Positions 61,873 through 63,423 of a stretch of DNA of 64,000 bases are shown here, piece by piece; the stretch's first letter is position 1; each line of letters opens with the position of its first letter. The notes under the pieces were generated by a model. That model saw nothing but the letters and a program-made list of their open reading frames with translations, ran no database searches and had not been told where the DNA came from. Both the position numbers and the translations under genes were made by a program. Origin of the DNA: an uncultured Gammaproteobacteria bacterium (GTDB lineage Bacteria; Patescibacteriota; Patescibacteriia; Patescibacteriales; UBA12465); NCBI GenBank assembly GCA_964588435.1, contig CAZPPI010000004.1:12-64011 (forward strand), read 5' to 3'.

Positions 61873-62148
61873 AATGTAAGTTTAATCAGGTAATGAATTG
61901 TGAGTCTAATCGGCATCAATTCGTTTGCCTATATGTCTTGCGACTCAAGACCACTCCGAAACAATATCGGAGGCGACTAATTCTTTAATTCCGAAGAAAG
62001 AAAGAATTTTCTCCCTAGAAAGGAGGTGATCCATCCACAGCTTCCGCTACGGATGCCTTGTTACGACTTCGTCCCTGTCATCAGTCTTACCTTCGTCCCA
62101 TATAAAATGAGCCTTCGGGCACTACCAACTCCCTTGACGTGACGGGCG

Positions 62149-63009
62149 ATTATCTTCTTATAAACTTAAGAATTGATGTTCCCACTCAGCGAGCGGATTT
62201 CCCGCACTGAGCGAGCTCTAATGCATTTTCTGCTTTAGCCGATATAATTCTGCTAAACCAAACGATGTTAAGTGCTCATTTTTATTTATCGCTACCATTA
62301 TTTCACAAAAGATTTTGAAATCTCTTTGCTTGGTTGCGAATTTAACCGGATTAGCTTTGAAGAAAGGAATGATTATTTTTTGTAAATCCTTCCTTTTTGT
62401 AACTTCATAACGATAACAATTTTTGTGATTTGGACGTTTATCTCCTTGGAAATAAACATTACCACATCCGAAATATTGTTTTAATTGATAGAGAATGTCT
62501 TTGTCTTCTTCGACTAACTTAATATAAAATTTTGGCTCAATTCGAGCCCTTCTTTTACGTTCAGTATTTTTACCATTATTAACATAAACGGTAGAACTAC
62601 CTTCTCCATCAATTAATCCAGTGATATATTCTACTTTCAACATATGTATTAGAGTGATTCCTTCCTCCAGTAAACTGGAGTACTATGAATCAGCTGACTT
62701 CTGACGCAGCGTTAGTTTCATTATATCATCAAAATTAATTTGATGAAACCACTAACGTCAGATCTCCCGGGGTTAATTAATCTACCTTTCCCGACATCCT
62801 GAAACGAATTTTTTTTGAATCTTCCCAATGCTCACCACCCTGTCCAAAGGTCGATTCTTCGTTTTATATCTTCAGGCTATCGTTTGTCTTAAGATCCTTC
62901 CACCAATTTCCTCGCGAAAATTGACTATCTCTTAACTACGCTCCTTTATAGACAAAAGGAGGAACGGATTTTAACCGTTTGGTAAATTAACCTGCCCGGC
63001 GCAGATTTT
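62149..63009 (-). mobile_element. 861-nt intervening sequence (intron-like) in 16S rRNA at about E. coli C1399/C1400, carrying a homing-endonuclease ORF
   Basis: Conserved ...CTTGTACTCAC (ends at 63010) and CGCCCGTCACGTC (starts at 62148) are contiguous in all normal 16S genes. The insert contains structured hairpins and a LAGLIDADG ORF. Confidence 0.85.
62218..62643 (-). CDS. single-motif LAGLIDADG homing endonuclease
   Basis: 141 aa. N-terminal YITGLIDGEGS (LAGLIDADG-type motif), with size and basic C-terminal half typical of I-CreI-like homodimeric enzymes. Located inside the rRNA insertion. Confidence 0.85.
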   Translation of the reverse strand: MLKVEYITGLIDGEGSSTVYVNNGKNTERKRRARIEPKFYIKLVEEDKDILYQLKQYFGCGNVYFQGDKRPNHKNCYRYEVTKRKDLQKIIIPFFKANPVKFATKQRDFKIFCEIMVAINKNEHLTSFGLAELYRLKQKMH

Positions 63010-63309
63010 GTGAGTACAAGACCCGAGAACGTATTCACCGTGGCATAGCTGATCCACGATTACTAGCGATTCCAACTTCATGAAGGCGAATTGCAGCCTT
63101 CAATCCGAACTGAGAGAGGTTTTTTGGGATTTGCTCCACCTCGCGGTTTGGCGTCCCTCTGTACCTCCCATTGTAGCACGTGTGTTGCCCAAGGCGTAAG
63201 AACCATGCTGATTTGACGTCATCCCACCTTCCTCCCATTTAAAACGGGCAGTCTCCCATGACATATAAAACATAGGATCAGGGTTGCGCTCGTTTCCCGA
63301 CTTAACGGT

Positions 63310-63346
<37 letters not shown>

Positions 63347-63423
63347 TCTGTCTAGCACCCTCGAAGGCGGATCTGTTTCCAGACCTTGCAGCTAAATGTC
63401 AAGCCTTGGTGAGGTTCCTCGTT

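Follow-up and report, generated by a model that had tools for sequence, protein, structure and literature searches.

A probable compact IIC-type group II intron with a LAGLIDADG gene between C1399 and C1400 of the only 16S rRNA gene of a Candidate Phyla Radiation bacterium

What kind of element can split a 16S ribosomal RNA (rRNA) gene at its decoding centre, and by what route might the rRNA be made whole again? This question is raised by an 861-nucleotide (nt) insert on the minus strand at 62149..63009 of the DNA stretch analyzed here (64,000 nt, hereafter the window), which divides the 16S rRNA gene between C1399 and C1400. A preliminary description of this locus had placed the insert at that bond, listed a LAGLIDADG open reading frame (ORF) and three hairpins within it, and remarked that its ends do not suit a group I intron. 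We identify it, with a probability of about 0.92, as a compact IIC-type group II intron harbouring a homing endonuclease gene in the only 16S gene of a bacterium of the Candidate Phyla Radiation (CPR). Its position, its RNA architecture, the complementarity between exon-binding site 1 (EBS1) and intron-binding site 1 (IBS1), the family of its ORF, and its presence/absence polymorphism are direct observations, each described below.

On the minus strand, the 5′ exon ends as ...CTTGTACTCAC (...GGGUCUUGUACUCAC) with its last base at 63010, and the 3′ exon restarts at 62148 as CGCCCGTCACGTCAAGGG (CGCCCGUCACGUCAAGGG). Joining of the two exons gives the universal GYACNCACCGCCCGUCAC block, and the break was taken to be C1399/C1400 according to the customary numbering of the 1392-1406 primer site. 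Among 30 genomes of the genus having this part of the 16S gene assembled, the site was uninterrupted in 24, reading cttgtactcac/CGCCCGTCACGTCAAGGGAGTT (the slash marks the bond of insertion here and below) with flanks identical to those of the window. The other six, comprising the window's genome and five more, carry the insert at exactly the same bond. An identical junction was obtained for 13 further loci from other species, which were retrieved via the ORF. As the uninterrupted congeneric sites show the same flanks, the boundaries of the insert are fixed by them and not merely by consensus, and the insertion bond given in the preliminary description is borne out.

62149..63009, minus strand: whole intron, 861 nt; its flanks equal the uninterrupted sites of the 24 congeners, and the 13 other loci agree.
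62148, minus strand: first base of the 3′ exon, C1400, from the junction reading and the congener comparison.

The covariance-model scan proposed for this locus assigned the insert to group II. The Rfam model RF01998 (group II) matched 62658-62740 with 38.7 bits against a curated gathering threshold of 35, and the match runs from the last part of domain II through the J2/3 linker and domain III. This model was also above threshold in five sibling introns and gave no second match elsewhere in the genome, and no other Rfam model of group I or group II matched inside the insert at E values up to 10. The ribozyme parts of 14 introns of the 1399/1400 type were then aligned, the 5′ part as alignment A2 and the 3′ part as alignment A1. 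For domains I to III, RNAalifold predicted 89 pairs on A2, in which 94.8% of the cells are paired and 65 of the 89 pairs have compensatory changes. Control pairings with partners slid by 1-3 columns gave 35-46% paired cells and 16-31 compensated pairs, and none of 500 shuffles attained the observed values. Domains V and VI gave 23 pairs on A1, of which 14 are compensated (94.8% paired). As judged from these alignments, the kept invariant positions and compensated helices indicate selection on the RNA fold. All six domains of a group II intron were located, the stem of domain IV being partly supported.

62767..62999, minus strand: domain I, with helices I(i), I(ii), IA, IB, IC with a GCGA loop, and one long ID arm (RNAalifold; helices 91-100% paired, most of them compensated).
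62696..62766, minus strand: domain II, with a basal helix 98.6% paired and a distal part of variable length among relatives.
62656..62691, minus strand: domain III, CAUAGUA...GAAGG, with the tip CUCCAG/CUGGAG (RF01998 match; compensated helices).
62216..62222, minus strand: 3′ strand of the domain IV basal stem, AUUAGAG, which overlaps the stop codon of the ORF and pairs with CUCUAAU at 62648-62654 (partial support).
62181..62215, minus strand: domain V, 35 nt, with a GAAAU loop, a 2-nt bulge, and a CGC triad at 62211-62213 (14 of 14 pairs 100% paired, 6 compensated).
62152..62177, minus strand: domain VI, 26 nt, non-canonical (8 of 9 pairs compensated).

The contents listed in the preliminary description were all found, although the identity of the hairpins had been missed: the CTCCAG/CTGGAG hairpin (62665..62680) caps domain III, the long hairpin is domain II, and the GAAA hairpin is domain V. 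The basal stem of domain IV was recovered by duplex folds in several relatives and is compensated in locus L008 (UUCUAAU/AUUAGAA). The CGC triad of domain V is invariant, and its G takes part in a G.U wobble. This triad, the single IC and ID arms (no EBS2/ID2 arm and no IC2), and a ribozyme of approximately 435 nt outside the ORF are features of the IIC class. The canonical IIC introns B.h.I1 and that of Oceanobacillus iheyensis share with the window's intron the small ribozyme, the CGC triad, the lack of EBS2, and a short IBS1, and the J2/3 and domain III sequence is similar as well (AGAAGUCAGC...CAUAGUA...GAAGG, matched by RF01998). They differ from it by having a reverse transcriptase ORF, insertion after terminator hairpins, a GUGYG start, and a bulged A in domain VI. 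A CGC triad is carried by some group II introns (PMC4424553), and the related rns-1396 family has been placed in the IIC subclass (Liu et al. 2026, PMC13190283).

The contact between intron and exon was located as follows.

63010..63014, minus strand: IBS1, CUCAC, the last five bases of the 5′ exon (16S 1395-1399), complementary to the invariant loop GUGAG.
62831..62835, minus strand: EBS1, GUGAG, in the terminal loop of the ID arm, inside GGYGGUGAG (62831-62839), which is invariant in 14 of 14 sequences.

The pairing of EBS1 with IBS1 ends at the 5′ splice site. When the endonuclease was used to query 400 genomes of the phylum, sibling group II introns, likewise with LAGLIDADG genes, were also found at the 16S bonds 1396/7, 1397/8, and 1398/9, giving the following registers.

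1396/1397, GUACA/CACCGC: seven loci of the rns-1396 type (L184, L187, L189, L191, L195, L196, and L197); EBS1 is UGUAC(A) in six, facing the exon end GUACA, and the EBS1 loop of L195 has no clear exon match.
1397/1398, GUACAC/ACCGCC and GUACUC/ACCGCC: L181 and L192; EBS1 GUGUAC and GAGUACA, facing the exon ends GUACAC and UGUACUC.
1398/1399, ACUCA/CCGCCC and ACACA/CCGCCC: L173, L174, and L179; EBS1 UGAGU and UGUGU(A), facing the exon ends ACUCA and ACACA.
1399/1400, CUCAC/CGCCCG: the window's type; EBS1 GUGAG, facing the exon end CUCAC.

In each register, the homologous EBS1 loop is flanked by UCGACC...GGGAAG, and the pairing stops at the final exon base. This shift of EBS1 together with the register supports the junctions read from rRNA continuity as true splice sites, whether or not a linker of the kind described below is present. 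A tree of the endonucleases places the 1399 proteins in one clade (support 98/98) and splits 1399 plus 1398 from 1396 plus 1397 (100/100). Only two of the introns are followed by a 3′ exon beginning with A; any column co-varying as EBS3 would be weak evidence.

The intron begins with AAAAUCUGCG... and ends with ...GAUAAU, the same termini that had been reported and judged unfit for group I. In canonical group II introns, GUGYG stands directly ahead of helix I(i). The corresponding parts of the window's intron are listed below.

63005..63009, minus strand: 5′-terminal insertion (linker) AAAAU; an A-rich run of equal length precedes GCG in all 14 relatives.
63000..63004, minus strand: degenerate 5′ motif CUGCG in the place of GUGYG; GCGC is invariant in A2 and abuts helix I(i).
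62149..62151, minus strand: 3′ end AAU, which satisfies the group II AY rule; A-N-U is kept in 12 sequences.

The linker is AAUAA in most relatives versus AAAAU in the window, and the five bases before helix I(i) are AAGCG, ACGCG, UCGCG, or CCGCG in the relatives, so that only GCG is kept. As far as the aligned sequences can tell, the odd 5′ end is a known variant, in which 5 nt are inserted at the terminus before a degenerate GUGYG. Such terminal linkers have been reported for fungal, algal, Clostridium tetani, and Thiotrichaceae group II introns (PMC4424553, PMC13190283), and one occurs in every rns-1396 member and in several algal and fungal families (PMC13190283). A bacterial precedent is C.te.I1 of Clostridium tetani with an 8-nt 5′ insertion, though this intron has a reverse transcriptase ORF and an mRNA location, unlike the window's. 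The ends had been taken as a hint of an atypical ribozyme or a different excision route; the latter was worth suspecting, but the 3′ AU follows the AY rule and the 5′ end is a documented variant. Introns of the 1396 and 1398 registers also have linkers similar to that of the window, whereas those of the 1397 register lack one. The presence of this A-rich linker (AAAUAAAU-like) in three registers suggests that it is inherited and functional, and not random slack.

Several observations weigh against the assignment to a IIC-type intron with an active ribozyme and endonuclease. The start is not GUGYG, the conserved GCG being shifted 5 nt inward. The bulge of domain V is UC here and variable among relatives, instead of the usual AY, and domains V and VI were unmatched by any Rfam group II model at E values up to 10. 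The 5′ exon is devoid of the terminator-like hairpin that is typical for IIC insertion; it is the single-stranded 1390s stretch of 16S, with a 5-nt IBS1 that EBS1 matches. Codon 17 of the ORF (62593-62595) is Ser (GEGSS) versus Phe (GEGSF) in 12 of 12 intact relatives, so that endonuclease activity of the window's copy is not assured. Finally, the RNA data do not directly show splicing in this organism. When metatranscriptome contigs of four runs were compared with 61980-63400, the joined sequence 62148/63010 was present in three of the four runs, and coverage of the intron was zero in all four. However, the short contigs at the joint extend past it by only 20-28 nt on their shorter side, and the junction is shared by intron-less congeners having 16S genes up to 98% identical. 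The joint is hence not assignable to this organism and counts neither for nor against splicing. Brown et al. 2015, by the account given in PMC11270868, reported removal of such inserts from transcripts.

For the group II reading, the following pathway is predicted from the sequence features. The intron would be transcribed as part of the pre-16S RNA, and pairing of the EBS1 GUGAG with the exon end CUCAC would place the C1399 phosphate in the active site of domain V, which contains the CGC triad. A first step by hydrolysis, releasing a linear intron and not a lariat, appears marginally the likeliest, and religation of the exons would then restore C1399-C1400 of the decoding centre. The preference for hydrolysis comes from two sides. 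The initial G1-U2 is replaced through the 5-nt insertion and two variable bases, and domain VI of the window type has an invariant AA bulge on its 5′ strand and no conserved unpaired A on its 3′ strand. In addition, 5′-terminal insertions are documented together with loss of the branch site; PMC4424553, citing Li et al. 2011, states that EBS2 and the branch site were lost alongside them.

The alternative that survives best keeps the same group II intron but has it splice by ordinary branching to a lariat, using an adenosine in the domain VI region that is not bulged in the predicted fold. As noted by Liu et al. 2026 (PMC13190283), one IIB1 intron with a LAGLIDADG gene has been shown to splice as a lariat, so that branching is compatible with a modified domain VI. 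Among the 1399-type relatives, L004, L007, and L011 leave an A at -6 of the 3′ strand unpaired, and siblings that bear a linker still have a bulged A, at -8 in L173 (1398 register) and at -9 in L184 (1396 register). On the other hand, the window's domain VI has no bulged A at 7-8 nt from the 3′ end, and the position of the expected branch A is occupied in the window and its genus by a G paired with C, the sole bulge (AA) being on the opposite, 5′ strand. The review mentioned above (PMC4424553) also ties 5′-terminal insertions to branch-site loss. The linker-less siblings L181 (starting UUGCG) and L192 (starting GGAUG), both of the 1397 register, have a bulged A at -8, which is a canonical branch site. 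The lariat route is thus considered possible but the less probable one. Taken jointly, a picture with at least four adjacent registers of sibling IIC-type introns, an inherited functional linker, and a 1399/1400 type that is an obligate hydrolytic splicer is moderately probable; in it, the exon-binding loop would have been rewritten base for base in each register, and the endonuclease clades would track the register. We found no description of this four-register resolution with matching EBS1 loops and endonuclease clades, nor of the way in which domain VI differs between siblings with and without a linker. These register-shifted siblings form a natural series for the co-evolution of EBS1, 5′ linker, and endonuclease target, and they also allow one to ask if loss of the branch site forces hydrolytic splicing.

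A second alternative is that the insert is an intervening sequence or a dead relic, either cut out by RNase to leave a fragmented 16S rRNA, or retained in a gene that is a pseudogene. Intervening sequences processed by RNase III are known in bacterial 23S genes, according to work cited in PMC11270868, and the splicing of the window's intron is a prediction, as are its chemistry and the activity of an endonuclease with the unusual change F17S. However, the genome of the window (G000) is 97% complete and has this one 16S copy, so that the insert must be excised for a working ribosome; the decoding centre would not survive a cut, or 861 extra nt, between C1399 and C1400. No GIIM (group II maturase) domain was found anywhere in the genome. 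With a single 16S copy, no maturase domain, and no other RF01998 match, the RNA fold must itself remain functional, which fits the covariation. The ribozyme invariants are kept, the helices are compensated, and the ribozyme ends are intact where the ORF has decayed. Either form of this alternative is very improbable. As a separate observation, two RVT_1 matches exist in the genome, at G000:C5:4737-5348 (-) and G000:C17:1119-1796 (+), one of which has an in-frame TGA.

An atypical group I intron, suggested by the fact that such introns are the usual hosts of LAGLIDADG genes and are present elsewhere in the 16S genes of relatives, can practically be dismissed, because RF00028 is unmatched in the insert even at an E value of 10, the exon ends in C and not U, the intron ends in U and not G, and the covariation-supported fold is that of a six-domain group II intron with domain V. 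The group I introns of the relatives (RF00028, 58-75 bits) were located at L192:2092-2353, L173:112-436 and 2068-2403, and L179:1142-1353. These 16S genes hold them besides group II introns, and hence both classes are possible in a single gene.

For the group II intron, the protein gene in the loop of domain IV was identified as follows.

62218..62643, minus strand: LAGLIDADG homing endonuclease gene, 141 amino acids, in the domain IV loop, with the single motif ITGLIDGEG (Pfam LAGLIDADG_1, E 3.7e-18).

The profile comparison that had been suggested for this ORF thus gave a clear family assignment, and one stretch of the protein covers the entire LAGLIDADG_1 profile, as in a single-domain enzyme. 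Among solved structures, the nearest are halves of enzymes of the I-OnuI family, and the protein aligns to each half. Since it has one motif and aligns to each half of these two-domain enzymes, the 141-residue endonuclease should act as a homodimer. Such a homodimer was shown for another single-domain enzyme of these bacteria by Tsurumaki et al. 2024 (PMC11270868). At the DNA level, spread of the intron would proceed by cleavage of an intron-less 16S gene near the insertion site by the homodimer, whereupon repair would copy the intron in. A scan of the intron-less join (63010-63025 to 62138-62148) detected a weak dyad, CGGG...CCCG, matching at 6 of 11 positions and centred 5 nt upstream of the insertion site, which may represent the half-sites of the homodimeric enzyme. 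A total of 1168 homologues were obtained at E < 1e-5. The best 120 of these 1168 are all at least 60% identical, and those with names are all from Patescibacteria except one labelled Hadarchaeum.

Homing endonuclease genes undergo an established cycle of gain, decay, and loss. In the genus of the window, where the intron is present in 6 and absent in 24 of the 30 genomes, the ORF has been lost in three copies, L144/L012 (837 nt) and L150 (720 nt). Domains V and VI are nevertheless intact in L150 and, in alignment A1, in L012. In L013 (897 nt), from another lineage, the ORF is truncated and the domain V region is altered as well. We infer that the ORF pattern in the genus is that expected from this cycle.

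Comparison with known systems places the window's element among the inserts termed 16IS9. Tsurumaki et al. 2024 (PMC11270868) counted 53 group-II-like inserts at 16S position 1400; a LAGLIDADG ORF is present in 39 of them and a reverse transcriptase in none. Inserts of this kind in CPR 16S genes were first noted by Brown et al. 2015, as cited there. The window's element is a member of this set, as it shares the host group, the 16S region, the Rfam group II match, the LAGLIDADG_1 ORF, and the lack of a reverse transcriptase. The preliminary description was hence right in referring it to a known class of ORF-bearing CPR inserts, while the location inside the decoding site, which it had singled out for checking, was already published in these 53 cases. 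The 16IS9 paper maps inserts by alignment to E. coli, so that position 1400 is one site there, whereas the exact bond 1399/1400 and at least four registers were distinguished here.

The rns-1396 family of Thiomargarita and other Thiotrichaceae (Salman et al. 2012, as cited in later work; Liu et al. 2026, PMC13190283) shares with the window's intron the IIC-type backbone without EBS2 or IC2, the 5′ linker, the single-motif endonuclease in domain IV, and the decoding-centre stretch. It differs in its site, GUACA/CACCGC with EBS1 UGUAC (Table S4, PMC13190283) versus CUCAC/CGCCCG with GUGAG in the window, 3 nt downstream, and the endonucleases fall in separate clades. Moreover, the ORF of most 1396-type copies extends through domains V and VI to within 7 nt of the 3′ splice site, whereas that of the window stops 3 nt ahead of domain V. 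With the Thiotrichaceae introns represented by the published Table S4 values, the window's intron is a close relative of the rns-1396 family and not a member. Sibling introns of the rns-1396 type in this phylum are L184, L187, L189, L191, L196, and L197. A pattern search for a Thiotrichaceae rns-1396 intron, using exon end plus EBS1, gave only chance hits among the matches listed. According to Liu et al. 2026 (PMC13190283), the family occurs in bacteria only within the Thiotrichaceae, although one Saccharimonadota record appears in their Table S4. Many more such introns were found here, and their survey would miss this much larger radiation.

A parallel exists in fungal mitochondrial rRNA introns (Li, Costa, Bassi, Lai and Michel 2011, as summarized in PMC4424553), which have lost EBS2 and the branch-site motif, and most of which, by the same summary, encode LAGLIDADG proteins and sit in rRNA genes. 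According to it they are IIB1 introns of mitochondria, whereas the window's intron is IIC-like, with the CGC triad and a ribozyme of approximately 435 nt, in a bacterial host. Earlier publications already account for both the position in the decoding site and the odd termini, and the basic picture for these bacteria is unchanged. The element is an ordinary representative of a known kind, with modest detail added. It also belongs with those introns whose 5′ splice site lies several bases ahead of the usual motif.

The intron also affects annotation. The match of the bacterial small-subunit (SSU) rRNA model ends at 62958, inside the intron; the 3′ end of the model, comprising helix 45 and the anti-Shine-Dalgarno tail, is forced onto domain I sequence (within 62958-63100), and the true last 135 nt of the gene (62014-62148) are dropped. 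Automatic annotation would accordingly yield a truncated 16S gene. In addition, the intron abolishes the 1392-1406 universal primer site. With the primer site lost and the SSU model misled, organisms of this kind are liable to be missed or mis-called in surveys. Two records titled "uncultured Gammaproteobacteria bacterium" (L001 and L002) carry the intron, and these titles look mislabelled: the endonuclease of one is identical to that of G042, and the intron length and 5′ end of the other are those of the G022 copy, both genomes belonging to the window's genus.

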